From NCBI GenBank assembly GCA_964406105.1, contig CAYOQK010000021.1, positions 38,665 through 102,664 of the forward strand: a DNA stretch of 64,000 nt, in the 5' to 3' direction. The DNA is from an uncultured bacterium (GTDB lineage Bacteria > Hydrothermota > Hydrothermia > WGAB01). Position 1 is the stretch's first letter. The number at the start of each line of letters is the position of its first letter. The notes under the pieces were generated by a model. It had not been told where the DNA came from, searched no databases, and saw only the letters and a list, made by a program, of their open reading frames with translations. Position numbers and translations under genes: made by a program. Below are positions 10,270 through 59,757 of this stretch, piece by piece.

Positions 10270-10282
10270 GGCTGTTGCTCCC

Positions 10283-11293: not shown

Positions 11294-11886
11294 GGGCGTC
11301 GTAAGGTTAACAGGTAACTGCCTTCTGTGGCTTCAATGGGAGTGAATTCTACAGCCAAGCCCAAAGCACGAACCCTTTGGATCACCTGCTCCGGAGGGTC
11401 CAGGTACACCTCGCTGCGGGCCACGCGTCGGTAAAACCAACGGTGCCAACGGGTGAGCAGGGTTTCGGTGGTGAGGGTGATCAGGGCAGTGCCCCCGGGA
11501 GCCAGGAGATCCCGCAGGCGTTGGAAAGCCGGGTCAGGGGGCAGCAGTTGAAACACGTTCATGCTCACCACCAGGGGGAAGGCATTGGCCGGCAGTTGGT
11601 ATCCAAAGTCGGCCACGCGGAAGTGGACACCAGGAAGGTGTCGCCGCTGGGCCCGGCGGATGGCCCTGCGGGAGAGATCCACCGCCCAGATCTCCGTGTG
11701 GGGGTACTTCTCCCGCAGTTTCCGGGTGAGGAATCCGGTGGAACACCCGATTTCCAGGAGGCGATGAGGGGGATCGGCGGGCAAGTGATGAAGGACTGCC
11801 CGCAGGGTAACCTGCCGCCAGAACAGCAATGGGGGCCACAGGAACGCCCATTCGCGGAGCAGGGGGTGCTCGTAATAGGCCTTCAC
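11290..11886 (-). CDS. Class I SAM-dependent methyltransferase
   Basis: LLEIGCSTG motif I, AVDLS, LRDLLAPGG. GTG start overlaps the folC stop (GTGA). Confidence 0.85.
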   Translation of the reverse strand: MKAYYEHPLLREWAFLWPPLLFWRQVTLRAVLHHLPADPPHRLLEIGCSTGFLTRKLREKYPHTEIWAVDLSRRAIRRAQRRHLPGVHFRVADFGYQLPANAFPLVVSMNVFQLLPPDPAFQRLRDLLAPGGTALITLTTETLLTRWHRWFYRRVARSEVYLDPPEQVIQRVRALGLAVEFTPIEATEGSYLLTLRRP

Positions 11887-28633: not shown

Positions 28634-29861
28634 ATCCCTGGAGTTCGTGGGTAAAGGGGTGCACTCAGGCCAACAGGTGCGGGTGGTCATAGAGCCCCGT
28701 ACCGACCAAGTGGGCTTTTTATTGATCCACGAGCCCTCGGGTTTGCAGTTTGAAGCGACACCCCAGCAGGTGATCACCACCCAGCGGTACACCGGCATCG
28801 GCACACCAGAGGTCCATATCCAGGTGCCTGAGCATGTGCTCTCGGCCCTTTTCGGCATGGGATTTGACGCTGCGATCCTTCGCTTGAGCCATACCGAGCC
28901 TCCTTTTTACGACGGCAGTGCCCTGGAGTATGCCCGGGCCTTGGCCGAGGTGCCCCGGGTGCCCCTGGAGTTTGAGGTGCCCGGGTTTGCTCCGCCCGAT
29001 CCCTTGGAGATTCGCGAGGAGGACGCTTGGGTTACCGTCACCGCCGCTGACCGCTGGGAGGTTTCCTATGCGCTCTCCTACCGCGCTGGGATGCTGCAGG
29101 GTGCCGCCCATTTCCCTGTGACCCCTGAGGTCTATTTGCGAGAGATCGCCCCGGCCCGCACCTATTTGTTTGAGGACGAGGTGGAAACCTTACGGGCTCG
29201 GGGGCTGGCTCAAGGGGGCACCTTGGAGAACGCTGTGGTGTTCCGCAGCGATGGCACTGTGTTGAACCCCGAAGGCCTGCGGTTTCCGGATGAGCCCGTG
29301 CGGCACAAAATCCTGGACTTGATCGGCGATCTCGCCCTGGCGCGGAAGCGACCCCAAGCCCACTTGGTGGTGTGGAAAGGAGGGCACGCCCTCCACCAGG
29401 CCCTGGCTCGCCGGATTGCGGCCTTTGCTCCAGACTTTGACATCCGGAAGGTGCTCCACCACATGCCCCACCGGTACCCCTTTCTGCTGGTGGATCGGGT
29501 GCTCTACCTGGAGGACACGTGGATCCAAGCGGTGAAGAACGTGACCTTCAACGAACCCTTTTTTACGGGTCATTTCCCAGAAAACCCCATCATGCCTGGA
29601 GTGCTCATCGTGGAGGCCCTGGCCCAGGCGGGTGGGTTCCTGTTGCTGCACCGGGTTCCGGATCCCGAAGGCAAACTGCTGGTGTTCGCTGGCCTGGACA
29701 AGGTTCGGTTCCGGCATACCGTTCGGCCAGGGGATCGCCTGTTGCTGGAGGGTGAACTCCTGCGGTTTGGTGGACGCTTGGCCAAACTCCGGGCGGTGGC
29801 CCGGGTGGGGTCGCGGGTGGTGGCGGAGGGCGAGTTCATGGCTTCGGTGGTGGACGCATGA
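28611..29861 (+). CDS. lpxC: Bifunctional LpxC deacetylase / FabZ dehydratase
   Basis: LpxC motifs [25 protein letters not shown], then Fab[34 protein letters not shown]. Confidence 0.95.
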
Positions 29862-39838: not shown

Positions 39839-42800
39839 CTAAGGCAGCACAAGCACCCGCTGGGTCCGTCGGATTTCGGGAGCCCTGAGGTGCAGGAAGT
39901 ACAGCCCCGGTGTAACCCGATGCCCCGAGGCATCGGTGAGATCCCAGGCGAGGGAGTGTACCCCTGGAGACAGGGCACCTTGGAACAGAGTGCGGACCCG
40001 CCGGCCGGTCACGTCGTACACCTCCAGAGCAAACCGGGCCGGTTCTGCCACCGTGACCGCCAGAGTGATGGGCCCTGGGGTGGGGTTCGGCAGAGGCGCC
40101 GCCAAGCCCCACTGCAGGGAGGGCACGGTGACAGAGGCTTGGATTCCCTTGGGTGAATGCCGCCACCAGGGGTTTTCCTCGGCGTTGCCAGTGTGGTAGA
40201 TGTCGTGTTGAGCCATGGGCCAGGCGTAGTCACTGGGCCCCAAGGATCCTGTGAGGTCAAACACGTACACCCGTTCCAGGCCCAGCACCACCAGTTCTGC
40301 GCCGCCATCCTGGTCCACATCGGCCACCACTGGGGTGGTTTTGATCTCGTTGTTCACGAAGATGGGGAACCCCGACACCACTTGACCTTCACTCCAAGCG
40401 TAAATGTACCCGTCACCGTGGATGCCAAAGACCTCATTGACGTTTTCCCCGGTGATATCGGCCAACACCGGTTGTGCGAAGTTCTGCAGTTGAGCAAACT
40501 GGAACAGCATGTCCCCTATGTTGTTCCCCAAGGTGTCCAGGGCCAGGATCTCTTCCTTGGTGGTGACCAAGAGTTCCAGTTGATCGTCGTTGTTGATGTC
40601 GGCCAAAGTGGGCAGGGTGTAGATGGATCCAGAAACGTTGATGCTCCGGGTGTAAAGGTTGGGCAGGAACTGGCCGGAGGCGTCCACGGTGCCTACGTAG
40701 TGGTAGGTGGTTAGATCGTCAACCTTGCGGCTCCATACGAAGGCGATCTCCAGGCCTGGACGGTACCGGTTAAAGTCCCCCAAGGCCACGCTGCTTTGGG
40801 AGTACTCGGTATATGAGGGGTGATGGACCAAAGGGAACCCTGGCATCGGGGTGCCATCGGGTTCAAGGGCCCAGAGGAATCCTGAGGAGGACACCGAGGT
40901 GACCACCACCTCGGGTTGGCCGTCTCCGTCCACGTCACCCACAGCAAGCCCGCCAGCATCCCAGTTGTAAGCACCCAGATTGGCAAAGAGGCCATCGCTA
41001 CCCGAAAGATACGGGGTGCCATCGCCGTGCCAGCACCATACCTTGCCGGACATGCCGTGGATGAGCACCTCGGGCTGACCGTCCTGATCCAAGTCGTAGA
41101 CCACAGGGCTGGCGTATGCTCCCATTCGGCTGACCTCCTGGCCCGGGGTACCCCCGCCGGTGAAATCCACCGGCCAACCACTAACCGGGGAGCCGTCCAC
41201 TTCAAAGGCATACACCCGGTCAATCATGCGTGGAGCCACCACGAGTTCCAACTGGCCATCTTGGTCCAGGTCCCCTAAGGCCACGCTGTTCCACACCTGG
41301 GCCGGAGGGTCCAGGTCTACGGGCCATCCGCTCACAGGCGTGCCATCGGCGTGGAAGGCATAGACCTTGCCTGTGCTGGTGCCGAAGAGGATCTCCAAGC
41401 CAGGATACGAGGGGTCAAAATCGGCCACCACCGGGTGGTGGGACTCGCCCCCGCCCTCGTAGGTCACCGGCCATCCTGGAAGAAGCGGGGGTTGTGTGGT
41501 GCCTGTGGCCTCATAACTCGGGACGCTGGCATTCCAGTATTGGTCCACCGTCACGATCCGATACCTGGCGGTTTCTCCAAAGGACACCTGGGGATCAATG
41601 TACTCGGCGTGAGGCCAAAGATTGAAGGTCAACCGCTCCCAGGTTCCCCGTTGATCGTTGAGCCGGAACACCAGGTACCCCCGAGCCAGGTACACCGAGG
41701 ACCAGTGTACCCGTACTCCCTCGGGGTGGGGATCCACCCGCACGTTGGCCGGTGGTGAGACATCGCGGTTGGCATGGAGCAAGGTGGTATCACCTCGGCC
41801 CCGTTCCTCGTGGAGTGTCCAGTTTTCCCGGATCCAGAAGAGGTTGGTGTGCAGTTTCCTCACCCGTACCGGAGCGTGGAACAAGGTGTCAAAGTGCAGA
41901 GCCTGGGCCGGCAAGAAACCCAGGAAATACATGGTATCCAACACCTCGGTAAAGGTGGAAGCAGCTTGGACCCGGATCCAGAGATTGCGGGCATCGTCGT
42001 GGCCGAGGTTGACAATCTCGGGCCAAAGGAACAGGGTGTCCCCGGAGATCTTCCGGTAGATCCGAACGATCCTGGGACGGGCAGCTTGAACCCACATCTT
42101 GAGGGTATCACAGGGGCCGACCTCTGGGGTGAGGGTGTCGGTGCGCACGCTTGCCGGATCCACCACTACAGCGAACTTCAGGTACTGGGCATCCGGGGTT
42201 TCAGGCACCAGGTATAGGGGAAACACCGCCTCCACCGTGTCACCGGAAAACACAGGCCCCACAGATACCGAATCCACCGGCAACAGAGCGTAGGGATGCA
42301 GGGGTACCAGCCGCACTGTAGCTCCGGCAAGGGGCTCGGTTCCAAGGAGGGTGAAGCGGAGGTGCACCTGTACGGATTCCGCAGCCTCAGGGATGCCGTC
42401 TCCGTCGCCATACCCATGATCGTCATAGTCCACCCCTACCCAATGGAGCACGGCTCCCTGGGCCTCTACGGGGATACGTCGCAATACCGGTACGAAACCG
42501 TTGGCTGTTACGGTGATCCGAACCGAGTCCGCTGTGGAGAGATACAGGGGGATTCGGGCCCAACCCTGGGCATCCGTGTAAACCCGCTGGTACAGGTTCC
42601 CCCCGGGTTGCCACAGGACCACGGCTGCCTGGGGCAGCGGTTCCTGGTTGTCGGCGTTTCTTACCTGGATCTCCAGGGTATCCCAACCTATACGCAGAGA
42701 GGCGGGGATGGAAACGGCCAAGGTGCGGGGTGCCCCAACCCAAACGGGCAGGGCAGGGTCGCCCAGGAGCGTTTTGGACAAGTAAATGTAGCGCTTGGTG

Positions 42801-44527
42801 GTGTTCCCTGAAACGGCCCAGAGGTGTTTGGTAAGGTAGAAGAGGCCCAAACCCAACACAGGCGCCGGGCTTTCAAAGAAGGCCCGGAAAAAGAGCTGGT
42901 TCATGAAGAGATCGCTATAGGGATAGTCCAAGCGCACCGTGGCGATGCCCCCCACGATGCCGTTCTCGGTGCCCACCAGCAGGTATTCCAGAATGCTGGT
43001 TTTGTCCCATCCTCCGCTGTGGCAGGTGGCGAGTTGGAGGATGGGCCATTGGTACCGGTTGGCCAGCAACTGGATCTCTGGGATGCCGAAGGGAATGTAC
43101 GGCTCTTTGTTCACCGCGAAGAAGGGGTAACTGCCGTGGGCCTCTACGAACATCAGACTCGCCCCTTGATTCACAGCGTTAACGAACTCTTCCACCGTGG
43201 TTTGATGGGTTTCGGTTTCGTACACACGCCTCCGCTCCAGCCATGTGGGGATGGCCTCGGCCACCCGCTCTGCCACTTTGTAACCCCAACCGTTGGAACG
43301 ATCTAAGTACGAGGCCGCCAGGATGACGTGGTTGAGGTATTCCGTGTTCATGAACAGCGAGTCGCCACCGGGCATGGTGCTATGGACCAGCACCTTCCAC
43401 ACGAAGCGCTCTGCCTGTTCCGGTGTGTTCAGTGGAACCCGCCCCACCAGGAGTTCTGGAAACATGTCCACTGAGTCTGCCCACTCCCCGATGAGATCAT
43501 CCCCGTCCCTGTTCCAATTGCCATCCAGATTGGCATAGAACCAGTCCGAGGGCGGGGTCCAGTCCGTATAGTTGCCGTGGGGGAGGGGGTGGTAGATCGT
43601 TTGATAGGGGACGAAGTCGGCATCCCCAGCCAGCAGCACGTACTGGATCCCCCAGGTTTGGTAAGCCTCCCGAAGGAAGTTGCGGATCTGGTCTGCCGAG
43701 TTTCGGCCGGAATAGTGGCTGAGGATCCAATCCACCGTATAGATGGCCGTGGGCAGGCCCCAAGCGGTGTGGAAGTCAGCCAGGGGCTGAAGGGCAGGTA
43801 CAAAGGCTGTATCGGTGACGATGAGATAGGCATAGGGTCCCCTGTCCAGTTGACGGGCATGGGGCTGGGCCAGGTGGACCTGGCTTAAGGGTACCTCGGG
43901 GATGTGGGGCCGGTATGTGGCCAAGGCCTCGGGGTTATCCACCAGGTGCGCCACGAAGGTGTCCAGCACGTGGCGGACGCCGGCCACCGCCTGGCGGGGC
44001 ACCATCCCGGGTTTCCGGGCCGGCCGTGTGTGTACCGTGAAGGTCAGGTGAGTGGCCACCTCCACGGTGCCACTCACGGGGTCAAAGCGAACGGGGTTCA
44101 CCTGTAGCACCGCAATCCGGTACCCTCCCAGGTTCCCCGTGGTGATCAGTTCCACCACCTGCGAGGGAAAGGGATGGGTTCCGTGGTAGATCTCCGGCTT
44201 AGGGGCTGCTGTGGGCACAGCGGGCCCTCCGATGTAGGTCTCGGTTTGGGTGGGCTCAGGGATTCCCTTGGCCAGAAAAGCGAATTCCAGCGATTGGATT
44301 TCCACTTGATCCGCCTCGGTTCCAGGGGGGAGCAGCAGGTTCACCCCCACGGAGGGCAAGGCGGGTTCGCCCGACCGGGTATTGATGGCCGCATCAGGGT
44401 GAGAAATGCGGATCCAGCCTTGTGGGGTGTGCGAAACCGTGAACTCGGAGGGTTGGAAGGAAAGGGTGTAAGTGACACCGGCAAAAAGGCTCCCTGCGCT
44501 CAAGAGGAGCGGCAAAAAAGCACGCAT
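39839..44527 (-). CDS. C25 (gingipain-family) cysteine peptidase with propeptide, FN3-like, FG-GAP propeller and FlgD-Ig/T9SS-type C-terminal domain
   Basis: SD GGAGGT and signal peptide. YVLLAGDAD, SDWFYA, VGRVP, AHGS (His), LATCHSG (Cys), LLGDPAL. GWPV/DLDQDG repeats. PNPT..VYDVTGRRVRTL..WDLTD..PGLYFLHL. Confidence 0.9.
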   Translation of the reverse strand: MRAFLPLLLSAGSLFAGVTYTLSFQPSEFTVSHTPQGWIRISHPDAAINTRSGEPALPSVGVNLLLPPGTEADQVEIQSLEFAFLAKGIPEPTQTETYIGGPAVPTAAPKPEIYHGTHPFPSQVVELITTGNLGGYRIAVLQVNPVRFDPVSGTVEVATHLTFTVHTRPARKPGMVPRQAVAGVRHVLDTFVAHLVDNPEALATYRPHIPEVPLSQVHLAQPHARQLDRGPYAYLIVTDTAFVPALQPLADFHTAWGLPTAIYTVDWILSHYSGRNSADQIRNFLREAYQTWGIQYVLLAGDADFVPYQTIYHPLPHGNYTDWTPPSDWFYANLDGNWNRDGDDLIGEWADSVDMFPELLVGRVPLNTPEQAERFVWKVLVHSTMPGGDSLFMNTEYLNHVILAASYLDRSNGWGYKVAERVAEAIPTWLERRRVYETETHQTTVEEFVNAVNQGASLMFVEAHGSYPFFAVNKEPYIPFGIPEIQLLANRYQWPILQLATCHSGGWDKTSILEYLLVGTENGIVGGIATVRLDYPYSDLFMNQLFFRAFFESPAPVLGLGLFYLTKHLWAVSGNTTKRYIYLSKTLLGDPALPVWVGAPRTLAVSIPASLRIGWDTLEIQVRNADNQEPLPQAAVVLWQPGGNLYQRVYTDAQGWARIPLYLSTADSVRITVTANGFVPVLRRIPVEAQGAVLHWVGVDYDDHGYGDGDGIPEAAESVQVHLRFTLLGTEPLAGATVRLVPLHPYALLPVDSVSVGPVFSGDTVEAVFPLYLVPETPDAQYLKFAVVVDPASVRTDTLTPEVGPCDTLKMWVQAARPRIVRIYRKISGDTLFLWPEIVNLGHDDARNLWIRVQAASTFTEVLDTMYFLGFLPAQALHFDTLFHAPVRVRKLHTNLFWIRENWTLHEERGRGDTTLLHANRDVSPPANVRVDPHPEGVRVHWSSVYLARGYLVFRLNDQRGTWERLTFNLWPHAEYIDPQVSFGETARYRIVTVDQYWNASVPSYEATGTTQPPLLPGWPVTYEGGGESHHPVVADFDPSYPGLEILFGTSTGKVYAFHADGTPVSGWPVDLDPPAQVWNSVALGDLDQDGQLELVVAPRMIDRVYAFEVDGSPVSGWPVDFTGGGTPGQEVSRMGAYASPVVYDLDQDGQPEVLIHGMSGKVWCWHGDGTPYLSGSDGLFANLGAYNWDAGGLAVGDVDGDGQPEVVVTSVSSSGFLWALEPDGTPMPGFPLVHHPSYTEYSQSSVALGDFNRYRPGLEIAFVWSRKVDDLTTYHYVGTVDASGQFLPNLYTRSINVSGSIYTLPTLADINNDDQLELLVTTKEEILALDTLGNNIGDMLFQFAQLQNFAQPVLADITGENVNEVFGIHGDGYIYAWSEGQVVSGFPIFVNNEIKTTPVVADVDQDGGAELVVLGLERVYVFDLTGSLGPSDYAWPMAQHDIYHTGNAEENPWWRHSPKGIQASVTVPSLQWGLAAPLPNPTPGPITLAVTVAEPARFALEVYDVTGRRVRTLFQGALSPGVHSLAWDLTDASGHRVTPGLYFLHLRAPEIRRTQRVLVLP

Positions 44528-44611
44528 AAACCCACCTCCAGATAAACGTTCCGAATAGCGTCCGGTTAGGGGGGACGCCCGTTCAGTAAGAGCCACCTGT
44601 GTGTGCTAAGA

Positions 44612-48775: not shown

Positions 48776-49444
48776 TCACCCCGTGGGGAACGGAGAACCG
48801 TAACGGCGTTCCAACTCAGCCCAGCGTTGTTTCAGCCGACGGGCGGCCTCTTCAGGGTCAGGGGCAGCGAAGACGGCGGAAACCACGGCGAAGAGATCAG
48901 GGCGAGCCTCTCGGTACAGTTGTTCCAGGTTTTCCAAGGTGATGCCCCCGATGGCCACCAGGGGGATGTGCAGGCGTTGACGGGCCTCTCGGAACACCGC
49001 TAAGGGCACTACAGGCTCTTCGGGTTTGGTGGGGGAGGGAAACACTGCGCCGAAGGCCACATAACTGGCCCCTTGGCGTTCCAGTTCCACGGCCAGCTCT
49101 ACGGAGCCATAGGCGCTGGCCCCGATGATGGCCTCTGGTCCCAGGATTCTCCGGGCCTCTGCCACTGGGGGGTCGTCCTTGCCCACGTGGACCCCGTCGG
49201 CGCCGATGGCGCGAGCGATCTCTGGGTGATCGTTGACGATTAGGGGGACGCCATACCGGTGGCATAGGGTGAGCAGTTGGCGGCCTTCTTGGATCAGGGT
49301 TGCGGGTGGGGCGTTCTTGTGGCGGAGTTGGACAAGGTCGGCGCCGCCCTGCAGGGCGGCGCCGACCTTGTCCAGAAGCTGATGGGGAGGCGTTAAACGG
49401 GGATCTGTGATCACGTACAGCGGCCCGCGGTACCAGGCCCTCAT
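48776..49444 (-). CDS. thiE: Thiamine-phosphate synthase
   Basis: LYVITD, VQLRHK, LIVND, GVHVGKDD, IIGAS, FPSPTK, VAIGGI, AVVSAV. Confidence 0.95.
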   Translation of the reverse strand: MRAWYRGPLYVITDPRLTPPHQLLDKVGAALQGGADLVQLRHKNAPPATLIQEGRQLLTLCHRYGVPLIVNDHPEIARAIGADGVHVGKDDPPVAEARRILGPEAIIGASAYGSVELAVELERQGASYVAFGAVFPSPTKPEEPVVPLAVFREARQRLHIPLVAIGGITLENLEQLYREARPDLFAVVSAVFAAPDPEEAARRLKQRWAELERRYGSPFPTG

Positions 49445-50514
49445 GACAGCCCCTCTTCAAAGGCCCGCCGGATCGCACCCCAGAAGGGGTCTACCCTGGG
49501 GTGTTCCAAGGGTTGTCGGCCCTCCGGCGTCACAAGCCACCGCCCCTCTTCCGCGGGCAGCACCTCACCAATCTCTGCAGCGAGAATGCCCTTTTGTTCC
49601 AAGGCCTTCAGCAGAGCCTGAACCCGGTGCGGCCGCACCGTGATGATCAGAGTGCCCTCACTGATGGAGGTGTAGGGGTCCATCCCAAAGGCCTGGGTGA
49701 TGGCCTCCACGGCCTCGGGAACCGGAATGCGGTCCCGGTGGATCTCCAGCCCCACGCCAGAGGCCTCTGCCACCTCGTACAGGCCGCCCAAAACCCCACA
49801 TTCGGTGGCATCGTGTAGGGCGGTCACCCCCTCATGGCGCACGCCTACGGTTACGGCGGTGAGGGCGTCTTCCACGGTGCTCATCTGGTAAAACAGGGCC
49901 TGCCCTTGTTCAGCGATGGCCTCGCCCAGTTTCCGCTCAATGGTGCGGGGGAAGGTGGCGGCGAAGATGCCTGTGGCCTCAATGGCGGCTCCCTTGGTGA
50001 TCACCACGCGGTCGCCAGGCTGAGCCATCTCCGGTGTGAGATACCGGTCCTCAGGACCCACGGCTAAGAACGTCGCGCCCCCCACCATGGGGTAATCGGT
50101 GCCGTCGTATCGGGCGGTGTGGCCAGCGACCACCGCGGCTCCGTACTTTTCCGACTCCTGGTGCCAAATGCGCCACACGATCTCAAATTCTTCCTCGGTG
50201 ATGCTGATGGGCAGGTTGAAATCCGGGATCACGAAGGCCGGGGGAAAGCCGGAGGTGGTCACATCCGAAGCCAGGATGTGCCAGGAAAACCAGGCTGCAC
50301 GCTCCCAGCCGTACTGGGGAACGATGTAGATGGGGTCTGTCGTAATGGCCATCACCTGGCCGTTCCCGATGCTCACGATGCCTACGTCCACGCCGTGGCG
50401 CGGCCCCACGAGCACATCTGCACGAGGAGCGCCCAGACGAGGGTAGATGAAGTGGTCAAAGAACTCCCGCGAGATCTTCCCGAGATCGGGAAACTGTACC
50501 TTGGGTTTTGCCAT
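49441..50514 (-). CDS. AIR-synthase/PurM-HypE-like family protein of unknown function
   Basis: GPRHGVDVG, TTDP, ASDVTTSG, GHT, PGDRVVITKG, HDATECGVLGGLYEVAEASG, ISEGTLI. Confidence 0.85.
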   Translation of the reverse strand: MAKPKVQFPDLGKISREFFDHFIYPRLGAPRADVLVGPRHGVDVGIVSIGNGQVMAITTDPIYIVPQYGWERAAWFSWHILASDVTTSGFPPAFVIPDFNLPISITEEEFEIVWRIWHQESEKYGAAVVAGHTARYDGTDYPMVGGATFLAVGPEDRYLTPEMAQPGDRVVITKGAAIEATGIFAATFPRTIERKLGEAIAEQGQALFYQMSTVEDALTAVTVGVRHEGVTALHDATECGVLGGLYEVAEASGVGLEIHRDRIPVPEAVEAITQAFGMDPYTSISEGTLIITVRPHRVQALLKALEQKGILAAEIGEVLPAEEGRWLVTPEGRQPLEHPRVDPFWGAIRRAFEEGLS

Positions 50515-50575
50515 CGTAAACCTCCCGTTCCGTCGGTTTTGGCACTGACGGGGGAGGAACCTGAGACAGGGCCAA

Positions 50576-50679
50576 CGGCAACTTCCCTACGCCGGCATGA
50601 CCCGGATCAGGTTCCAGGGGTCGATCCCGCTTTGACAAGGGATCCTCTCAGCCGGCTTGCACCGACTCCCCCGTTGCCG
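50576..50679 (-). promoter_or_regulatory. TPP riboswitch (THI box)
   Basis: Minus strand GGGAGTC..GCTGAGAGG..GACCCCTGGAACCTGATCCGGGTCATGCCGGCGTAGGGAAG, P1 CGGCAAC/GTTGCCG, upstream of a thiE operon. Confidence 0.96.
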
Positions 50680-50795
50680 ATGGCTATGATACGGCATGGA
50701 GGGCATATACTTTGGCCTTCGGGCAGGGGGGCGTGAACCCCCTTCTTAGAAGAGGTCCAAGGGATGCGATCAGAAGCACACTTGGGTGACACGCC

Positions 50796-52013
50796 ATGAA
50801 GATCTTGCACGTAAATGTCCTGTACCCCCCGTTTGTGTGGGGAGGTGCGGAGCGATCGGTCCAGACGCTGGCCGAAGCTCTGGCCCACAGGGGGCACCAG
50901 GTTTGGGTACTTTCTCAAACACCAGAACCACACCCTCAAAAGGACTTGATCAACGGGGTGCACGTGATCCGGTGGCCCACTCAAAACCTGTATTTCCCCT
51001 ATCCTTCGCGGCGTCCTCCTGCTCCACTGCGTCTGTTATGGCACTCCAAAGACACCTTGAACCCCCAGGTGGCCCGGAAGACGCTGCGACTGCTTCAGGA
51101 ACTTCAGCCCGACCTGGTGCATACCCATCTGCTGATTGGCTTCTCCGTGAGCGTGTGGTGGGCGGTCCATCGCCGCCGGATTCCCCTGGTGCACACCCTC
51201 CGGGATCACTACCTGCTTTGTGCCCGGAGTTCTATGTACAAGCACGGTCGGAACTGCAAAACCATCTGTGCGGCCTGCCGCCCCTTTGTTCGTCCCCGTA
51301 GGGAAATGAGCGCCTTGGTGGATGGAGTAATCGGGCCCAGCCGTTTCATCCTGCGGCGTCACCTCAACTTCGGATACTTTCCCCATGCCCAGTGGGCAGT
51401 GATCCCCCATGGCGTTGAGATCCCTCCAGAAACCGAGATTCCTCCATCACCACCGATTCCCCCTTTGCGTTTTGGATACTTGGGTCGCCTGGATCCTTAC
51501 AAGGGCATTGAACTGCTGCTGGAGGTTTTCCATCGTTGGCAGGAACCCTCGGCTGAGCTTTGGATTGCGGGGAGAAGCATGCCTGAAACGTATGGGCTTT
51601 CTTTGAAGGACAGGTACGCACACGATCGGCGAATCCGCTGGTTAGGTGTTGTCCATCCTTCGGAGTTGTTCCAACAAATCCATGTTTTGGTGGTTCCCAC
51701 ACTGATTCACGAGACTCTGGCCCGGGTGATCCTGGAGGCCAACGCCTATGGAATTCCAGTCATTGCAGCCCACCGTGGCGGGATCCCCGAGGAGGTACGG
51801 GAGGGCGAAACCGGTTTTCTGTTTGACCCCGATCGCCCCGAAACCCTGGAACAATGGTTCCGACATATCCGTAAAAACCCCCGAATCCTGGAACCCATGC
51901 GGCAGAAAGCCCGGAGGTGGGGAGAGGCCTTTAGCATAGACCGAATGATAGAGGCACACCTGGACTTTTATCGCCGGATTGTGTATCACAAGCACCAGGA
52001 TGGACCCCTTTGA
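50796..52013 (+). CDS. Glycosyltransferase family 4
   Basis: GGAERS, PDLVHTH, HTLRDHYLLC, GYLGRL..KG, ETLARVILEA..GGIPE. Confidence 0.92.
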   Translation: MKILHVNVLYPPFVWGGAERSVQTLAEALAHRGHQVWVLSQTPEPHPQKDLINGVHVIRWPTQNLYFPYPSRRPPAPLRLLWHSKDTLNPQVARKTLRLLQELQPDLVHTHLLIGFSVSVWWAVHRRRIPLVHTLRDHYLLCARSSMYKHGRNCKTICAACRPFVRPRREMSALVDGVIGPSRFILRRHLNFGYFPHAQWAVIPHGVEIPPETEIPPSPPIPPLRFGYLGRLDPYKGIELLLEVFHRWQEPSAELWIAGRSMPETYGLSLKDRYAHDRRIRWLGVVHPSELFQQIHVLVVPTLIHETLARVILEANAYGIPVIAAHRGGIPEEVREGETGFLFDPDRPETLEQWFRHIRKNPRILEPMRQKARRWGEAFSIDRMIEAHLDFYRRIVYHKHQDGPL

Positions 52014-52602
52014 ACCCTGGAAACTTCGGCTCCTGGGAGGGTTGTACCGCCTGTGGGCTTCTACTCTGCGGCTTCATACTGATCCATTGCCCCCTGCTCC
52101 CGCGGTTATGGCCCTCTGGCATCGCAATCTCTTTGCCGCCCTGTGGGCATATCGGCACCAGGGAATTGTGATCCTGGCCTCTCGGCATCGGGACGGCCGA
52201 CGCATCGCCGAGCTGGCCTGGACCCTGGGATACCAGCCTGTTCTGGGGTCCTCTACTCGGGGTGGGGCCGCTGGGGCCCGCGGTCTTCTTCGGGCGTTGA
52301 GGGAGCCGCGCGTGGTGGCCATAACGCCCGATGGTCCCAAGGGCCCCCGGTTTGTGGTGAAGCCCGGGGTCTTGGAGATCGCCCGTTGGGCTCAGGTGCC
52401 CGTGTATGCCGTGGGGGTGGCCTGTAGCCCTTGCCGGAGTGTGAATTCCTGGGATCAGTTCGTGATTCCATTGCCCTTTGCCCGTTGCCGGGTGCGGTTC
52501 CTGGGTCCGTGGGATCCCCACCATCTCTCCCCCGACGGGCTGGCCCAACGGCTGCATCAGGCCGATCGTCTGGCGGCTCAATCCCTTTCCCCTCAGGGGT
52601 AA
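52000..52602 (+). CDS. DUF374 / lysophospholipid acyltransferase-like protein
   Basis: WH, ASRHRDG, GSSTRGG, ITPDGPKGP, NSWDQFVIPLPF. Confidence 0.85.
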   Translation: MDPFEPWKLRLLGGLYRLWASTLRLHTDPLPPAPAVMALWHRNLFAALWAYRHQGIVILASRHRDGRRIAELAWTLGYQPVLGSSTRGGAAGARGLLRALREPRVVAITPDGPKGPRFVVKPGVLEIARWAQVPVYAVGVACSPCRSVNSWDQFVIPLPFARCRVRFLGPWDPHHLSPDGLAQRLHQADRLAAQSLSPQG

Positions 52603-52613: not shown

Positions 52614-53798
52614 TTACAGAGCAGCGGAGTCCTGGCCCAAGAGTTCGTGGATGATGGCTTGACCCAAGCCTACGATGTTGCCCATGGTGACCACCACCAG
52701 GCGCTCAGCCGGCAACTGCACCAAGGTTTGCACCACTTCGGTGGCGGATTTCCCCTCCAGGTCCAGGATCCGGTCCGCTGGCACCCCCCGATGTCGCAGG
52801 GCCCTGGCCACCGGATGCACCACTTGGCCGGCCAGCAGGTACCAGTCCGCTTGGATGCCTGAGCCCAAAAGCCGGGCAAAGGCCTCGGTTCGCTGGGGCC
52901 GATCCTTGCGGGCCACGAACAGTGCCACCGTTTGGGCCTCGGGATGCCGGGGAACCACGGTGTGCCAGATCACTTGGGTGGACTCAGGATCGTTGGCTGC
53001 AAAGGCGTTATACACCCAAAGGGTTTGTGCGCCCCGTTGGATGCGGAACCGACGCAGTGCCCCAGGATCTGGGGGCACCTGCTGCATCCCCCGAAGGGCC
53101 TGCTCCCGGTCCACCCCAAAGTGTGCGGCTACAGCCAACGCCAGCGCCACGTTCTCCGTGTGTTCCACATAGGAAAAGCCTGTTAGGTCTTCCGGTTGAA
53201 CCCATTCCTCTGGCCGCACCACCACCACGCGGCTGTTCCGGCGGCGGGCTTCCTGTTCCAGCAGACGAACGAAGCGTTGATCTGCGGTGAACAGCACCCC
53301 GTTCCTGGGGGTGGTGAGGGCGAGGTGCTGGGCCACATGGGCCAGGGTGGGGCCCATGGTGTCCAGATGGTCCTCCCGAATGTTGGTGATCACCCCCACT
53401 GTGGATTGAACGATGCGGTCCTCCAAAACCCGAAGGTACTCCGGTGTGATGGCCATGCACTCCAGGACCAGGATATCCGCTTGGGCCTCTACTGCACGCT
53501 TTACGATGCGCAACTGCTCCAGGATGTTGGCCCGTCCTGCCCGGAATACGGGCACTTCTTTTCCGTCGGGAAACAGGAAACGGGGAGCAGTGCCTGTGGT
53601 TTTGGCCACCACCCGGTGGTTCGGCAGTTGCCGTAGTGCCCCATAGATCAATCGGGTTACCGAGGATTTCCCCCGGGTGCCGTTGACATGGATCCGGTGA
53701 GGGATACGGGCCAGGTTTCGTTGATGCTGTCGGTACCGGTAAGCCTCAATCCCTAAGAAAACGGCGGTGACCCCCAGGGAGACCTCCAGCAGTGGCAT
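52614..53798 (-). CDS. pgsB: Poly-gamma-glutamate synthase PgsB/CapB
   Basis: RIHVNGTRGKSSVTRLI, AKTTGT, NILEQ, ECMA, TNIREDHLDTMG, FAANDPEST. Confidence 0.95.
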   Translation of the reverse strand: MPLLEVSLGVTAVFLGIEAYRYRQHQRNLARIPHRIHVNGTRGKSSVTRLIYGALRQLPNHRVVAKTTGTAPRFLFPDGKEVPVFRAGRANILEQLRIVKRAVEAQADILVLECMAITPEYLRVLEDRIVQSTVGVITNIREDHLDTMGPTLAHVAQHLALTTPRNGVLFTADQRFVRLLEQEARRRNSRVVVVRPEEWVQPEDLTGFSYVEHTENVALALAVAAHFGVDREQALRGMQQVPPDPGALRRFRIQRGAQTLWVYNAFAANDPESTQVIWHTVVPRHPEAQTVALFVARKDRPQRTEAFARLLGSGIQADWYLLAGQVVHPVARALRHRGVPADRILDLEGKSATEVVQTLVQLPAERLVVVTMGNIVGLGQAIIHELLGQDSAAL

Positions 53799-53801
53799 GG
53801 T

Positions 53802-55577
53802 TCACCACCGGAAAACCGGGGAGCTCCAGGTCAAACCTGTGCTCCAGGCATCGTAGTTCTTGAAGACCAGATCGTGGGGGTTCTGATCCACCCAAACCCG
53901 TCTTCCGGTATAGGCCAGGAACCAATACAGCGTCCCCACGGGCGCCACCAGGGGTACGGTCACGCGGAGGCGGGTTTCCAGATCACGGCGGCCGTAGTGC
54001 AGGTCGTCATCGGCCTGGGGGGTTAGATAGGTTTTCCAGGCCAAACGCCCGAAGGCCCGGGCCTGTCTGGGAAGCGGGAATTCGCCGTAGCCTGCCAGTA
54101 GCCAATAGCTGGCATCGGGTTCCCAGGGTTGGGCGTCGGTAACCAAGAGGCCCAGGGTGCCGCCCAGGCGGTACCCTGGGATGCGGGCCTCAGCCTGGAG
54201 TTCCCATCGGTGCCCCGAAAGGTAAGAAAAGGGAGCCTGGTAGGCGAAGCGCTGCCATCGTAGGATCAGGGCGCCCCGGTTTCTTTGGCGTCGTCCTTGC
54301 ACCTTGAGATCCACGGCCAGCGCAGTGTACTGCAGGGGATCCGTGCGTTGCACACGGGAACGGTAAACGGGCCGCACGTACACCTGGGGACGCCAGGAGA
54401 ACCCTATGGTCCAAGGACTTCGCCTGCGAGACACCTCAAGCCGCAAGGCCGTGCGGTTTTTAACCGGATTCCGCAGATGGCCGTACAGGGTGACGGTGCT
54501 TCTCCAGCGGAAATCCCCGGGGTACCATCGCAGGAAGGCGCGAACCCGAAGGCGAAGGTCTGTGGGTGCGTGGACGTCGGGATAGCGGTAGGGCGCTGTA
54601 CCCTCTCGGATCCGCTGTAGGTCCTCCTCGGCGAAGGTGAAGGGGTTGCTGAGATAGGCCCATTGCCCCTGAACACTGAACCGCCAGGGGTGCCGTTGTC
54701 CTGGCGATGCCCACAGGTATGGGAGCATCCAGAGCTCTCCCCGAGGGGCCCGGAGGAGCCGTTCTCGGCGACTGGGGATCCGCCGCTGAGTGCGGGTTTT
54801 CTTGGAACGTACCTCACGGTAGAGTTTGACCAACCCCCGGCCTCCTTGGGTGCGGACCTGGTACTCGTGCTCGCCCTCAGGCACCTTGAGGAAACGTTTG
54901 CGAGGCCGAGTGAGACGCAGGGTGGTGTCCTCCAGGATGCGGGCCCGGTGGGAGGGTTTCCAGCGGTTACGGATGTGGAACAAGAGCGAGTCGCCCTCCC
55001 ACACCTGAAACGTGGGCGTTTGCCCGGTGATCCCCCGGAAGTAGAACCACACCCGAGCGGGTCCCCGCACCCGGAACACCACCGGTGAATCGGGGGTTAC
55101 CCAGTAATAGGTGGTGCGCTTGGTCTTCACTTGCAGGGTGGCCGGGAACCCTCCGGTTAAGGGGACCACCCGGCGGAGTTGGGGCTTTCGCCATTCGTAG
55201 TACCGCACCCGTACCGGCCTTTGGCTTTCCAAACGGTAGGTTCCTGGGGGCAAATGGATCTTGATCTCTCGGCGTTTTTTCACGGTCCAGGATTTGAATT
55301 CCTTGCCTTGGCGCAGGAGACGCACGCGGGCGGGCCCCTTTTTGCTGAGGTTCTCCAATCGGAGTTTCACGCTTTTGCCGCGCTTTAGCGTCCATTGGGC
55401 AGGATGACGGGCGCTAATCCGAACGTAGAGGTATCGCACGCTGTCACGCACCACGATGTGCCGTTTCCCCTTGAGGCGCGAGGTTTTATGCACCCAATAG
55501 GAGAACCCAGGGGGTGCGGAGCCCAAAAGCAGCAGGAGCCCCAAACCCCAGGAGAAGAGGGAAAGCCCTTTGGTCAT
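53802..55577 (-). CDS. Hypothetical exported basic protein with probable C-terminal outer-membrane beta-barrel, inside the pgs operon
   Basis: ATG overlaps the pgsW stop. Signal peptide, very K/R-rich beta-type N-half, amphipathic aromatic strands in the C-half, ends in ..SPVFRW. Confidence 0.7.
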   Translation of the reverse strand: MTKGLSLFSWGLGLLLLLGSAPPGFSYWVHKTSRLKGKRHIVVRDSVRYLYVRISARHPAQWTLKRGKSVKLRLENLSKKGPARVRLLRQGKEFKSWTVKKRREIKIHLPPGTYRLESQRPVRVRYYEWRKPQLRRVVPLTGGFPATLQVKTKRTTYYWVTPDSPVVFRVRGPARVWFYFRGITGQTPTFQVWEGDSLLFHIRNRWKPSHRARILEDTTLRLTRPRKRFLKVPEGEHEYQVRTQGGRGLVKLYREVRSKKTRTQRRIPSRRERLLRAPRGELWMLPYLWASPGQRHPWRFSVQGQWAYLSNPFTFAEEDLQRIREGTAPYRYPDVHAPTDLRLRVRAFLRWYPGDFRWRSTVTLYGHLRNPVKNRTALRLEVSRRRSPWTIGFSWRPQVYVRPVYRSRVQRTDPLQYTALAVDLKVQGRRQRNRGALILRWQRFAYQAPFSYLSGHRWELQAEARIPGYRLGGTLGLLVTDAQPWEPDASYWLLAGYGEFPLPRQARAFGRLAWKTYLTPQADDDLHYGRRDLETRLRVTVPLVAPVGTLYWFLAYTGRRVWVDQNPHDLVFKNYDAWSTGLTWSSPVFRW

Positions 55578-56698
55578 ACGGTTTCCTCCGGTGGTTCCTC
55601 GGGTTTGCCCAGCAGGCGACCCACCAGGTCGTAGTGGGGCAGAAGGTAGAGGAGGAGGCCATTGATCACCAGGAGTGCGAGCACCACTCCCAGGTGGTAC
55701 CGGGTTTGCCAAAACAGAGGCCCCACGCCAGGTTCTGGTGTTACGCCTGGGGCTATGGGCAGCCCGTGTTGGCGGGCCAAGCGAACGATCTCCAGCAGAT
55801 GGATCACCGGAACCCCTTGCTCCAGGAATCGGTACACCACACCCTGCACGGGAAGGTTCTGGAGGAACACGCGTTCTTCGGGCAAGTTGAGCCCTGGGCG
55901 AAGGAGATAGCCTGCCTCTGAGGTGCCCAGGCTGGCCACACCGCCTCCGATGTTGACATAGGCCCGGAGGGGCTGGCCGGCAGCAGCCTCCTGGAACCGC
56001 TGCATTCGCAGTTCAATGCTCCGTTCCAAGGGCAGTACGTGGATTTTGGGGATGCCGTTGCGCACGATGGCCGAATCCAACAGGGCCCGTCCTTCGGGGG
56101 AAAGGCCACGTCCCACATCGTCCGCTCCCCCGTAGGAGGCGGCTATGGAGCGCGTAGGGATCAGGTGGGCCGTGTAGAGTTCGTGTTCCATGTCCAGCCA
56201 GGTCCAAGAGGGACGATTGGCGCCCCAACTGGAGGATCCCACCGAGGTGATCACCACCGGGATCGCTCCCAGGGCCTGGATGGCCATCAGGGTGGCCACG
56301 TTGAGGGCGGGGAACGATCCCGTCATGCCCACCGCCACCCGATCGCCGGGCCGCACGCCGGCTTGGTGCAAAAACTCCACGATCAGGGCCGCAAAATTGG
56401 GGTTGATGCTGGTGAGCTTGGCGGTGAGGTTGCCCGAACTGGTGGTGATGGGGGAGTTTTCCAGACCGATGAGGCCTGTTTGGGCAGGGTCGTTGATGGG
56501 GTCCATCTCAAAACCGTGGGCCAAGAACTGCTGCTTTAAAAAGGCAAAGGCCCTGGCGGTGTTTTGGGCAGCCTGGAGTTTGATGTCGTACAGGGGCGCT
56601 TGGGTTTCGTGGAGAGACCACTCGGCGAGCCCCAGCGACACCAGAGCCACCAACGCCAGGAACCCCATATCGCGCAGTTTGAGCACCCGTCGCTTCAT
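55574..56698 (-). CDS. pgsW: Poly-gamma-glutamate system protein PgsW
   Basis: TGLIG..SPITTSSGNLTAKLTSINPNFAA, GDRVAVGMTGSFPALN, SVGSSSWGAN, YVNIGGG, VPVIHL. ATG overlaps the pgsC stop. Confidence 0.88.
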   Translation of the reverse strand: MKRRVLKLRDMGFLALVALVSLGLAEWSLHETQAPLYDIKLQAAQNTARAFAFLKQQFLAHGFEMDPINDPAQTGLIGLENSPITTSSGNLTAKLTSINPNFAALIVEFLHQAGVRPGDRVAVGMTGSFPALNVATLMAIQALGAIPVVITSVGSSSWGANRPSWTWLDMEHELYTAHLIPTRSIAASYGGADDVGRGLSPEGRALLDSAIVRNGIPKIHVLPLERSIELRMQRFQEAAAGQPLRAYVNIGGGVASLGTSEAGYLLRPGLNLPEERVFLQNLPVQGVVYRFLEQGVPVIHLLEIVRLARQHGLPIAPGVTPEPGVGPLFWQTRYHLGVVLALLVINGLLLYLLPHYDLVGRLLGKPEEPPEETV

Positions 56699-57147
56699 AG
56701 TACCGGCGCGCCTCCATGGATCAGGATGAGCAGGAGCCGAATGAGCACCGTGACCACCAGCAGCATGCTGAGGGTAGCCCGCACGCCCTGTTTGTCCATC
56801 CAATAGGCCATGAGGCCTGGGATGATGAACCCAAAGGCGCGGATGGCCAACACCAGGTCGCCCACGGGGGTTTGGCCCAGCAGTTGCGACGCTTGGGAGA
56901 AGAAGAACCCGATGACCACAGCCAAAAACAGGCGACGACGGCCATAGACCAACACATACCGAGACACCCCTTTGAGCAGGCCCAGGGTAAGGAAGGCGGC
57001 CAGAAGGGTGCCTGCCAAGAGGGCCGGGCGGGTGAGGATCAGGGCCACATACCCTGGTACCACCAAACCGCCGGCCACGTACCCCAGCACTTCCGAGAGG
57101 TAGAGCGACAGGAGAAGGCCCAAGGCGATGGATTCGGCAAGGATCAT
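56695..57147 (-). CDS. pgsC: Poly-gamma-glutamate biosynthesis protein PgsC/CapC
   Basis: GGLVVPGYVAL, VYGRRR, GFIIPGLMAYWMDKQG. Confidence 0.93.
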   Translation of the reverse strand: MILAESIALGLLLSLYLSEVLGYVAGGLVVPGYVALILTRPALLAGTLLAAFLTLGLLKGVSRYVLVYGRRRLFLAVVIGFFFSQASQLLGQTPVGDLVLAIRAFGFIIPGLMAYWMDKQGVRATLSMLLVVTVLIRLLLILIHGGAPVL

Positions 57148-57156
57148 CGGAATTCA

Positions 57157-57185
57157 ATTATGGGGACTGCCCCGCACAACTGCAA
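57157..57185 (-). promoter_or_regulatory. sigma70 promoter of the pgs operon
   Basis: TTGCAG-17-CATAAT-9 nt-ATG of pgsC. Confidence 0.7.
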
Positions 57186-57311: not shown

Positions 57312-57506
57312 TCAGCACTTACGGGGGACACGGCCGTAGCCGCAGAGGTTACATTCCAGGTCGCCGTTGGCGTTGCGGGTGATCTTGCCGATCTTGCAAT
57401 GGGGGCAGGGGTCCCCCTCCTTTAGGAGCACGAGGCCCATGCCCAGTGCTCCCTGACTCATCTGAGTGCGGGTCTTATGACCGGTGTTTTTGGGTTCCTT
57501 CTTCAT
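57312..57506 (-). CDS. Small zinc-ribbon protein (64 aa)
   Basis: SD GGAGG, ATGA overlap with the PLD gene, CPHC..CNLC. Confidence 0.65.
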   Translation of the reverse strand: MKKEPKNTGHKTRTQMSQGALGMGLVLLKEGDPCPHCKIGKITRNANGDLECNLCGYGRVPRKC

Positions 57507-58447
57507 GGTGCCTCCACGGGTTCCACGCGCTTTGCCGTGAGTTCGTTGTAAAACCGCAGGCGTCCCACCTGCTTTACCGCGTAAAAGGTTCCCTCCACCC
57601 GAACCCATTGTCCCTCCTGCAGCGGGGGATGGCCTCGCAGGTAAACCTTTAGGGAGGCCACGCCGTCGTCCAGGCGGAATAGGGTATAGGGATTTCCCCG
57701 CCGGGAAAACTTCTGCCTCAGGTTTCGGACCCGTCCCTGGAGCACCAGGGTACGCTCATGGTAGGCCTCGGGGTGGCTTAGGATCTCCTGAATTTGAGAA
57801 GCCTGAGGGGAGTTGTTCTCTGGCGGGGTTTGGGGACGGAGGGTATCGGAGAGGGTAGAGGCGCTGGAGGGAACAAAGGGCTGGGCGACGCGCCACAGGG
57901 AATCAAAAAAGGCCGCCTGTTGGTGGACCGCCAGGCCGCCCCGCAGGAGCACGTTGGTTTCCAAGTTGTGGGTCAGGGCGTAGTAGGTCCAATTGGTAGA
58001 GCCCAACAGCAACCACTGGTCGTCCACCAGGAGCATTTTGCCGTGGGCAGTTTGGCCAGGGTTGTCCACTCGCACTTGGACCCCTGCACGGTGTAGCCGG
58101 GCCAGGGTTCGTCGGTTCCGCGGGCCCACTCGTCCCCTGAGGTGTTCCTCGCCCCCCTCCGTGATCACTCGGACGGACACGCCCCGTTGGGCTGCCTGTT
58201 CCAACAGGGTGTACAGGGAGTCCAGGGGATCTCCTGGCCGGGCCTCAAAGAGTTCAAACATCAGGAGACGCACGCTCTGCTGTGCCCGTTGGAGCAGATC
58301 GCGGGCGATGGGATAGTAGGTTGTGCCGTTCACCGCGCGGGAGGCTGGGCGGCTTACGAGGCACAGGTACAGGAACGCTCCCAGCAGGAGCCCCACGCCG
58401 AAGGCTAAAAGGATCCGACGGTTCCGAAGGTTGCGCCACCCCTGCAT
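57503..58447 (-). CDS. Membrane-anchored PLD-family (single HKD, Nuc-like) protein with C-terminal OB fold
   Basis: N-terminal TM, AAQRGVSVRVI, HGKMLLVD..GSTNWT..NLE, then VLQGRV..GNPYTLFRLDDG. Confidence 0.82.
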   Translation of the reverse strand: MQGWRNLRNRRILLAFGVGLLLGAFLYLCLVSRPASRAVNGTTYYPIARDLLQRAQQSVRLLMFELFEARPGDPLDSLYTLLEQAAQRGVSVRVITEGGEEHLRGRVGPRNRRTLARLHRAGVQVRVDNPGQTAHGKMLLVDDQWLLLGSTNWTYYALTHNLETNVLLRGGLAVHQQAAFFDSLWRVAQPFVPSSASTLSDTLRPQTPPENNSPQASQIQEILSHPEAYHERTLVLQGRVRNLRQKFSRRGNPYTLFRLDDGVASLKVYLRGHPPLQEGQWVRVEGTFYAVKQVGRLRFYNELTAKRVEPVEAP

Positions 58448-58668: not shown

Positions 58669-59361
58669 TTACTCCTGGTTGGCGATCACTCGGATGAACT
58701 TGTGGGGCAAACGCCCGTCGTTGGTTTTCAGCATCAAAACGCCGCTGTAAGGTTTGTCTTGGCCTACGGTGATCTTCAGGTAGATGCGGCCGGTATCCCC
58801 TGGGGCGATGGTGTCGGGGTCCCAACCTTGAACGTCTACCCCTTTGAAGCCGTTGATGGACTCCAGCACCAGGGGCAGTTGGCCATCGCTGATCAGGAGT
58901 ACGGTATCCAGCACCACGGTGCCCGGCGGTACCTGTCCCAGGTTGAGCAGCGAGGGGTACACGTAGCCCCGTGGTTTGGGCATCTCTTTTACCTGGCCAC
59001 GGATCAACACCCGCACCTCGGGTTGGTCGGGATCGTTGCTCACGATGCTCACGGGTTTCACAAAGCTCCGGCCACCGTATCCCCGCGAGTTAAAGGACAC
59101 ATGGAGCACTTGACTGTCCCCTGGAGCGATGCTGGTGTTGTCCAGCAGGGTGGCGGTGCAGCCGCAGGAGGTGCGCACGGAAAAGATCTTCAGGGTGTCG
59201 GTGCCGGTGTTCTTCAGGACGAAATCGTGGGTGTAGATCTTGCCCTCATCAATGATGCCGAAGTCGTGGACCGGTGCCGGCACCTCCAAGTGCGGGGCGC
59301 CGGACAACAACCCTGCGAAGGTCAGTAAGAGCGCAAAAGCAAACCCCTTTCGCATGTTCAT
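58669..59361 (-). CDS. Exported DUF1573-domain (Ig-like) protein
   Basis: HDFG..F..KNTG..L.I..V.TSCGCT, IAPG, VSIVSNDP, second Ig-like unit. Confidence 0.82.
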   Translation of the reverse strand: MNMRKGFAFALLLTFAGLLSGAPHLEVPAPVHDFGIIDEGKIYTHDFVLKNTGTDTLKIFSVRTSCGCTATLLDNTSIAPGDSQVLHVSFNSRGYGGRSFVKPVSIVSNDPDQPEVRVLIRGQVKEMPKPRGYVYPSLLNLGQVPPGTVVLDTVLLISDGQLPLVLESINGFKGVDVQGWDPDTIAPGDTGRIYLKITVGQDKPYSGVLMLKTNDGRLPHKFIRVIANQE

Positions 59362-59415: not shown

Positions 59416-59757
59416 ATGAGAGGTTTGGTGCTCCGCTGGATCCTGTCCATGGTATCCCTGTGGCTTGTGAGTTGGGTGCTCAAGGGCATTGAGGTTTCCG
59501 GGTTTTGGTCGTTGCTCTTTGCCTCTTTGGTGTTGGGGATCTTCAACGCCTTGATCCGCCCGGTGTTGATCCTCTTGACTCTACCGCTCACCCTGCTCAC
59601 CCTGGGGCTTTTCACCTTCGTGATCAATGGATTCCTCCTGTGGCTCACCGGTCAGGTGGTACGGGGTTTTGAAGTGCACGGGTTCCTTACGGCCTTTGTG
59701 GCGGCCATCCTCCTGGCGGTGTTCAATAGTGTGATCAATTGGCTGGTGCGAGGATGA
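59416..59757 (+). CDS. 4-TMS holin-superfamily (YvlD-like) membrane protein
   Basis: LGIFNALIRPVLILLTLPLTLLTLGLFTFVINGFLL..GFEV.GF. Confidence 0.88.
   Translation: MRGLVLRWILSMVSLWLVSWVLKGIEVSGFWSLLFASLVLGIFNALIRPVLILLTLPLTLLTLGLFTFVINGFLLWLTGQVVRGFEVHGFLTAFVAAILLAVFNSVINWLVRG

Follow-up and report, generated by a model that had tools for sequence, protein, structure and literature searches.

The stretch of DNA analysed here, referred to as the window, comprises 64,000 nucleotides (nt) from an uncultured bacterium of the Hydrothermota (GenBank assembly GCA_964406105.1, contig CAYOQK010000021.1, positions 38,665 to 102,664). Its minus strand carries a poly-gamma-glutamate (PGA) operon with the gene order pgsC-pgsW-X-pgsB, in which X is a gene of no known family and a candidate for the outer-membrane part of the system (Table 1). 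PgsB, PgsC and PgsW were judged by the curated (equivalog) cut-offs of NCBIfam, and all three exceed them. PgsC, the polytopic membrane subunit of the PGA synthase, is hydrophobic over its entire length in a hydropathy analysis. PgsW has two hydrophobic helices, at residues 11-29 and 332-356, and a basic N-terminus, and the domain of about 300 amino acids (aa) between the helices is predicted to be periplasmic. No relative of PgsW was found in the PDB by sequence search. The reading frames overlap as ATGA between pgsC and pgsW and again between pgsW and X, and the gap between X and pgsB is 3 nt, so the four genes almost certainly form a single translationally coupled transcription unit, in agreement with the tight linkage claimed in the preliminary description of this DNA. 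pgsC shares the operon with pgsB, but pgsW and X lie between them. pgsB is the final gene and converges on a DUF374 gene of the opposite strand.

The window had also been described as free of capA and capD. For capA this holds, as none of the four operon proteins matches PF09587 (PgsA/CapA) and a CapA-like query from a related locus (L011) gives no tblastn match in the window; for capD no search was aimed at the gene. In L011 itself (9835-11624), X is followed by a gene for a 263-aa secreted protein and then by a CapA-like PGA_cap (PF09587) gene. PgsW can thus occur together with CapA-type proteins in one locus.

Table 1. Coordinates of the pgs operon, of the parts of X and of other features in the window (pLDDT, predicted local distance difference test score)
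Feature	Position	Strand	Characteristics
pgsC	56695-57147	-	150 aa; TIGR04011 104.4 bits (cut-off 96.45); PF14102 E 5e-28
pgsW	55574-56698	-	374 aa; TIGR04332 'poly-gamma-glutamate system protein' 316 bits (cut-off 100)
X	53802-55577	-	591 aa; no family match in Pfam, NCBIfam or PDB
X, signal peptide	55500-55577	-	aa 1-26; helix 6-19 in the model; no lipobox cysteine
X, beta-sandwich module 1	55188-55499	-	aa 27-130; very basic; all-beta, pLDDT >90
X, beta-sandwich module 2	54810-55187	-	aa 131-256; conserved GGG..P..L, YTYY and KGP...R motifs
X, linker	54687-54809	-	aa 257-297; disordered (pLDDT <50); Arg/Lys-rich, net +10; length varies in the family
X, beta-barrel	53805-54686	-	aa 298-591; 14 long antiparallel strands (298-589), pLDDT ~90
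pgsB	52614-53798	-	394 aa; Mur-ligase-type ATP-dependent amide ligase; TIGR04012 403.5 bits (cut-off 222.7); PF08245
Promoter-like TTGCAG-17-CATAAT	57157-57185	-	9 nt between the -10 hexamer and the pgsC start codon
Conserved CATAAT element with flanks	57148-57170	-	CCCCATAATTG
DUF374 gene	51979-52602	+	
LpxC-FabZ fusion	28611-29861	+	PF03331 + PF07977
Peptidase_C25 + FlgD_ig protein	39839-44596	-	
Secreted beta-helix/NosD protein	20501-24973	-	1490 aa; C-terminal dockerin
Secreted FG-GAP/transglutaminase-core protein	6487-10269	-	1260 aa
Thiamine pyrophosphate (TPP) riboswitch	50566-50682	-	RF00059, 72.5 bits
AIRS/ThiL-like gene	49441-50514		
Probable TMP-TENI/ThiE gene	48776-49444		assigned by synteny with L002
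Small zinc-ribbon open reading frame	57312-57470	-	CxxC...CxxC motif (…CPHCKIGKITRNANGDLECNLCGYG…)
Upstream neighbours	57503-58447, 58669-59361, 59416-59757	-, -, +	PLD-like with C-terminal OB fold; small YtxH-like; secreted DUF1573 Ig-like; membrane protein of the 'phage holin 4' family with four transmembrane segments

The protein X was modelled with AlphaFold2, and the pLDDT rises from 68.9 with a 4-sequence alignment to 86.8 with a 19-sequence alignment. The model consists of the signal peptide that had been recognised at the outset, two beta-sandwich modules, a linker and a 14-stranded domain, in line with the fold that had been anticipated for it. In the alignment, the mature protein starts at a nearly invariant Y27-W28. 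Modules 1 and 2 align with each other as divergent copies of a single unit, roughly 110-125 residues long (hhalign probability 91%, E 1e-6), and module 2 is the form that recurs where the N-terminal part is a gene of its own. When the whole model is compared with the PDB by Foldseek, exclusively outer-membrane barrels are matched, all at 13% identity or less; these results are dominated by the barrel. The matches include the 14-stranded OmpG (template modelling (TM) score 0.55), Omp32, OpdK/Occ (OprD), FadL, OmpF/C, EstA, and, among the top matches, the PgaA secretin 4y25 (TM 0.45-0.47). The C-terminal half of X is 16% aromatic and ends in ...VFRW. Averaged over 46 family members, all 14 strands alternate a hydrophobic, aromatic-rich face with a polar face. 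The presumed periplasmic turns are 2-5 aa in length and the outer loops are longer, the most conserved being loop L1 (aa 310-339, 30 residues). These turn and loop lengths match the usual topology, in which both ends of the barrel and the N modules would be periplasmic.

X is strongly basic. Its first 100 mature residues contain 30 lysines or arginines (K/R) and 5 aspartates or glutamates (D/E), close to the preliminary count of about 31 and 6. Mature X has a net charge of +71 and an isoelectric point (pI) of 11.4, with +41 in the N modules and +20 in the barrel, and it has the highest charge density among the credible open reading frames of the window, whose median pI of 8.9 is already rather basic. 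By residue alternation, the polar face that would line the lumen of X has 26 K/R and 9 D/E, which is a net charge of +17. All 19 fused members of the family are basic (pI 9.0-11.8, N modules +11 to +49), being K-rich in lineages of low guanine-plus-cytosine (GC) content and R-rich in lineages of high GC content. The residue used follows genome composition, so it is charge and not sequence that is conserved in the fused family. The lumen face, again from residue alternation, is net positive in all 19 (+2 to +17, the window's clade being the most extreme). Homologues that are split into two genes are only moderately basic, with N modules of about +12 to +14, one of -8, and barrels of +2 to +8, one of -6 (P0035, of uninformative context). 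Their lumen faces come out near neutral, although the register of residues may be blurred where the aligned sequences share only about 20% identity. Judged from these compositions, the polycationic guide and lumen is a strong trait of the fused WOR-3/Hydrothermae-type clade and not a family-defining one. The earlier picture of a polycation-lined guide with a basic lumen thus fits the fused clade, and it does not extend to the split homologues with their near-neutral lumen.

A word-indexed search with X finds three close homologues only (56-59% identity), and one with a diverse alignment finds only five proteins, probably swamped by K/R-rich words. An exhaustive search with a four-sequence profile finds 104 proteins, of which about 20 are full-length two-module proteins and the rest are N-only or C-only. 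None of the examined members of this set has a Pfam family, and the named ones are annotated as 'hypothetical protein'. Searches of Pfam, NCBIfam and the PDB with X and a 19-member family give only sub-threshold Cupredoxin_1 and scattered single Porin_4 and OMP_b-brl matches, and X and 18 homologues have no Pfam or NCBIfam match to the AlgE, PgaA or BcsC families. On these searches, X does not belong to a known unrelated family.

Searches for related loci with narrow alignments gave three loci from genomes and two from metagenomes. In all, the genomic context was read for 15 distinct loci besides the window, 16 in total; the locus of the C-only homologue P0035 (L012) was left out as a 2-kilobase contig of uninformative context. 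X is fused in eight of these loci, with the order C-W-X-B in five (L001, L002, L004, L006, L007) and B-C-W-X in three (L009, L010, L011). In five more (L008, L013, L014, L015, L016), the N module and the barrel of X are encoded by separate genes, giving the order B-C-W-N-C, and each half carries its own signal peptide. The last two loci were picked by the taxon of PgsW only and not via X. One, from Nitrospirota (L017), has B-C-W followed by a 178-aa and a 338-aa gene, and the other, from Ignavibacterium (L018), has B-C-W followed by a 303-aa and a 376-aa gene. With the family profile their barrels score 97-99 bits and the upstream proteins 44 and 82 bits, corresponding to one and two module copies, respectively. 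X modules therefore lie directly after pgsW in 15 of 15 loci with readable flanks, with pgsB and pgsC nearby, and this includes both of the loci picked by PgsW. The predicted co-occurrence of X and the pgs genes is borne out by this count, and a chance co-location of X with the operon, which was considered, is rejected on the same constancy across phyla. The position of pgsB, noted earlier as last rather than first, is correct for the window and limited to its clade; more distant loci have the usual B-C-W-X, and the order is thus a clade-specific rearrangement, not a general feature.

X diverges faster than its operon partners. It has 58% identity to its counterpart in L006 vs 83-93% for pgsB, pgsC and pgsW, and 30% vs 57-75% in L007. 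By these identities X diverges at about twice the rate of its partners, as is usual for envelope-exposed proteins. PgsW has at least 1633 clusters of homologues, and the named ones all come from two-membrane phyla (Nitrospirota, Fibrobacterota-type Chitinivibrionales, Bacteroidota, Chlorobi/Ignavibacteria, Fermentibacteria, Methylomirabilia, and Zixibacteria). As PgsW is so widespread, the X family is probably far larger than the 104 matches reachable by the four-sequence profile.

The genes beyond the barrel gene also recur in several loci. An LVIVD / 'choice-of-anchor B' beta-propeller gene follows it directly in L008, L014, L015, L016, and L018. In L008 and L014-L016, genes for large Peptidase_C25 and BNR proteins come after the propeller gene. 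In L018 it is followed by Peptidase_S8 proteins with a Por_Secre_tail (type IX secretion signal), and a Peptidase_C25 gene lies upstream of pgsB.

The host was assumed from the start to have two membranes. The window contains an LpxC-FabZ fusion, which indicates that the host makes lipid A and has a lipopolysaccharide outer membrane, and the assumption is thus substantiated. The Peptidase_C25 protein of the window, encoded at a greater distance from the operon, has an FlgD_ig tail of the type carried by type IX secretion cargo, and SprA adjoins the pgs operon in a related WOR-3 locus. The closest loci come from 'candidate division WOR-3' genomes assembled from metagenomes, and the host is itself assigned to WOR-3.

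From its operon position, predicted fold and conservation beside pgsW, X is very probably a dedicated envelope component of the PgsBCW system. It is further proposed to be the export conduit, that is, the periplasmic and outer-membrane part of a PgsB-PgsC-PgsW-X apparatus for PGA, with a probability of roughly 0.6. As is established for their families, PgsB and PgsC would assemble glutamate into the polymer at the inner membrane. The periplasmic domain of PgsW would take up the nascent polyanion, and the tandem polycationic beta-sandwich modules of X, together with the basic linker, would bind the chain and hand it on. The 14-stranded barrel, with a hydrophilic charged lumen that is net positive in this clade, may then pass the chain across the outer membrane. 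In the preliminary description X was already a periplasmic guide and barrel exporting PGA; fold and operon linkage agree with this, the basic lumen is confined to the clade, and the transport step is deduced from architecture.

Several points weigh against this proposal. The sample of 16 loci is small, and most were reached via homology to X. The lumen faces of the split barrels are densely charged, yet their net charge, estimated by residue alternation, has a median near 0 and extremes of -17 and +12, and an acidic N module occurs as well. Substrates of the beta-barrel assembly machinery (BAM) usually end in an aromatic residue; X does so with the terminal Trp noted earlier along with the aromatic C-terminal half, but its homologues do not conserve this residue. 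Barrel closure, pore width and lumen charge are estimated from strand count, Foldseek matches and residue alternation, not from coordinates. A monomeric barrel of 14 strands is narrower than those of AlgE (18), PgaA (16), and BcsC (16), and the long conserved loop L1 may fold inward and constrict the pore. The organisms are all uncultured, and both PGA synthesis and the localisation of X are predicted from sequence.

X could instead be a surface or envelope anchor, in which the barrel only fixes the protein and the polycationic modules hold a PGA capsule, either in the periplasm or, in the manner of an autotransporter, outside the cell. It would then be the two-membrane counterpart of CapD anchoring. 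The concentration of positive charge in the N modules rather than in the barrel suits such a role, as does the lack of a capD-like anchoring gene seen in the operon, with the reservation given above for CapD. The order of signal peptide, N-terminal 'passenger', linker and C-terminal barrel is also that of the type Va autotransporters, and EstA is among the Foldseek matches. Membership of X in the type Va group is nevertheless rejected, since X has 14 strands and not 12, its linker is disordered and basic and not a pore-filling helix, there is no match to the Pfam Autotransporter family (PF03797), and the protein is naturally split into two secreted proteins. Self-translocation is hard to reconcile with N modules that are often encoded apart from the barrel and carry a signal peptide of their own. 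In addition, all members have a channel-like lumen, hydrophilic and dense in charges, and an anchor would still require a separate exporter, of which none is visible. An anchoring function is thus considered unlikely.

A role as a periplasmic or outer-membrane regulator or scaffold of the synthase is considered improbable. Here X would modulate chain length or activity via PgsW, comparable to roles proposed for PgsA/PgsE, and the polymer would leave by another way or stay in the periplasm. X is always beside pgsW, the split barrels have no net positive lumen, and the additional CapA-like gene of L011 indicates that accessory proteins can combine. A conserved transmembrane barrel with a hydrophilic lumen would, however, be needless for a regulator, and no other outer-membrane candidate is conserved in the loci. 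It is very improbable that X serves as a porin in the uptake or recycling of PGA or glutamate oligomers, or that it is a general porin merely travelling with the operon. The nearest folds do include substrate-specific uptake channels (OprD/Occ, FadL, Omp32), but other barrel folds match equally well, X sits among biosynthetic genes with overlapping stop and start codons, and the window shows no linked gene for a hydrolase or a transporter. Its constant place after pgsW across phyla argues against hitch-hiking, and general-porin membership is rejected on this and on its embedding in a biosynthetic operon. Compared with the export conduit, all three alternatives accord less well with the split genes, the number of strands, the hydrophilic nature of the lumen, and the place of X in the operon.

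AlgE, PgaA and BcsC: Like X, these are beta-barrels from polymer-synthase operons that come with a periplasmic module, fused or separate, which is thought to guide the chain. The AlgE pore is electropositive. X would work in the manner of the AlgK/AlgE, PgaA and BcsC arrangements. The fused clade of X may resemble AlgE in a lumen charge complementary to the polymer, an estimate from residue alternation that is near 0 for the split barrels. In contrast, X has no sequence-family relationship to the three proteins and has 14 strands instead of 16-18. Its periplasmic part consists of two beta-sandwich modules without a Pfam tetratricopeptide repeat (TPR) match, and in place of a polysaccharide it would carry a gamma-linked polyamide.

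EpsL: Among named families, EpsL (TIGR03014) alone gives a sequence signal; it is matched weakly by 6 of 27 stand-alone X-type barrels, with a best E of 2.4e-12. The pgs-linked Nitrospirota barrel matches it with E 1e-6 and about 28 bits, far under the 275-bit cut-off, and X itself has no match to it in the NCBIfam search. EpsL, like X, is an outer-membrane barrel encoded in an exopolymer locus, which in its case is linked to the XrtB/PEP-CTERM exosortase; EpsL loci make polysaccharide. We know of no experimentally defined function for EpsL. By these matches the X-type barrel is distantly related to EpsL-type barrels, which is consistent with a shared origin among the barrels of exopolymer loci.

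Bacillus PgsBCA(E)/CapBCA(E)D: PgsB and PgsC are shared with the Bacillus system as orthologues, both scoring above the equivalog cut-offs. In contrast to that system, PgsA/CapA is not found in the window, and PgsW and X hold the accessory positions. Bacillus lacks both an outer membrane and a barrel of this kind.

LptD: X is similar to LptD in that an N-terminal periplasmic all-beta module is fused to a C-terminal outer-membrane barrel, which in LptD delivers a large amphipathic or charged molecule. The LptD barrel differs in having 26 strands and LptE as its plug. X and LptD share neither a sequence match nor a specific fold match, and LptD is not among the listed Foldseek matches of X.

Promoter-like element: The operon was described as preceded by a promoter, TTGCAG-17-CATAAT. 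The element is present, and only 8 of its 12 positions agree with the sigma-70 consensus. A sigma-70 consensus scan called no promoter here, and no convincing terminator was found either. The CATAAT hexamer with its flanks (Table 1) is conserved in four loci (the window, L001, L002 and L006), where it lies 8-9 nt upstream of the pgsC ATG, and a -35-like TTGC[AG]G at 17-nt spacing is retained in three of the four. The remaining sequence upstream of pgsC is not conserved among these loci, and no Shine-Dalgarno sequence lies between the CATAAT element and the start codon. A genuine promoter giving a nearly leaderless pgsC mRNA is plausible because of this conservation only.

Neighbouring genes: A TPP riboswitch lies upstream of the AIRS/ThiL-like gene, and a probable TMP-TENI/ThiE gene is assigned beside it. 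The same thiamine genes adjoin the pgs operon in L002. On the other side of the operon, a small open reading frame with a zinc-ribbon motif lies between the PLD-like gene and pgsC; upstream of pgsC in L001 it is absent. The upstream neighbours have no evident operon link and are not kept beside the operon in relatives. Elsewhere, the window encodes two further large secreted proteins, one of the beta-helix/NosD type and one with FG-GAP and a transglutaminase core.

PGA loci occur in most phyla, many of them two-membrane, and are defined by CapB/C with accessory CapA/E (PMC5542703). Two-membrane bacteria need at least one further protein for PGA to cross the outer membrane (PMC5542703). The accepted model of PGA production holds inner-membrane parts only, namely CapB/C and accessory CapA/E, plus CapD. 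A full-text literature search returned no description of an outer-membrane component for PGA; the coverage of this search is incomplete, and an earlier description elsewhere is possible. The terms 'TIGR04332' and 'poly-gamma-glutamate system protein' are absent from the searched full texts, and 'pgsW' occurs only as an unrelated string. X is rated as a protein built of two undescribed domains, and as an outer-membrane porin with a periplasmic module that comes from a synthase operon and would serve a new class of substrate.

The conserved barrel and periplasmic module 3' of pgsW are a concrete candidate, and the best yet, for the step at which PGA crosses the outer membrane. In its widest form, to which even odds are given, the proposal is that PgsW, the beta-sandwich module or modules and the 14-stranded barrel would make up a complete, TPR-free, envelope-spanning secretion apparatus for an anionic gamma-polypeptide. 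Such an apparatus would have a wide distribution among two-membrane phyla (WOR-3, Hydrothermae, Ignavibacteriota, Nitrospirota, and probably other carriers of PgsW). A non-polysaccharide, non-ribosomal polyamide would thereby have a known outer-membrane exporter for the first time, and two new protein domains would be defined. The candidate could improve models for capsule prediction and aid PGA production in Gram-negative hosts. It could also explain how PGA is released or displayed in Gram-negative-type bacteria, and could add a new family with a new periplasmic domain to the porins of exopolymer secretion.

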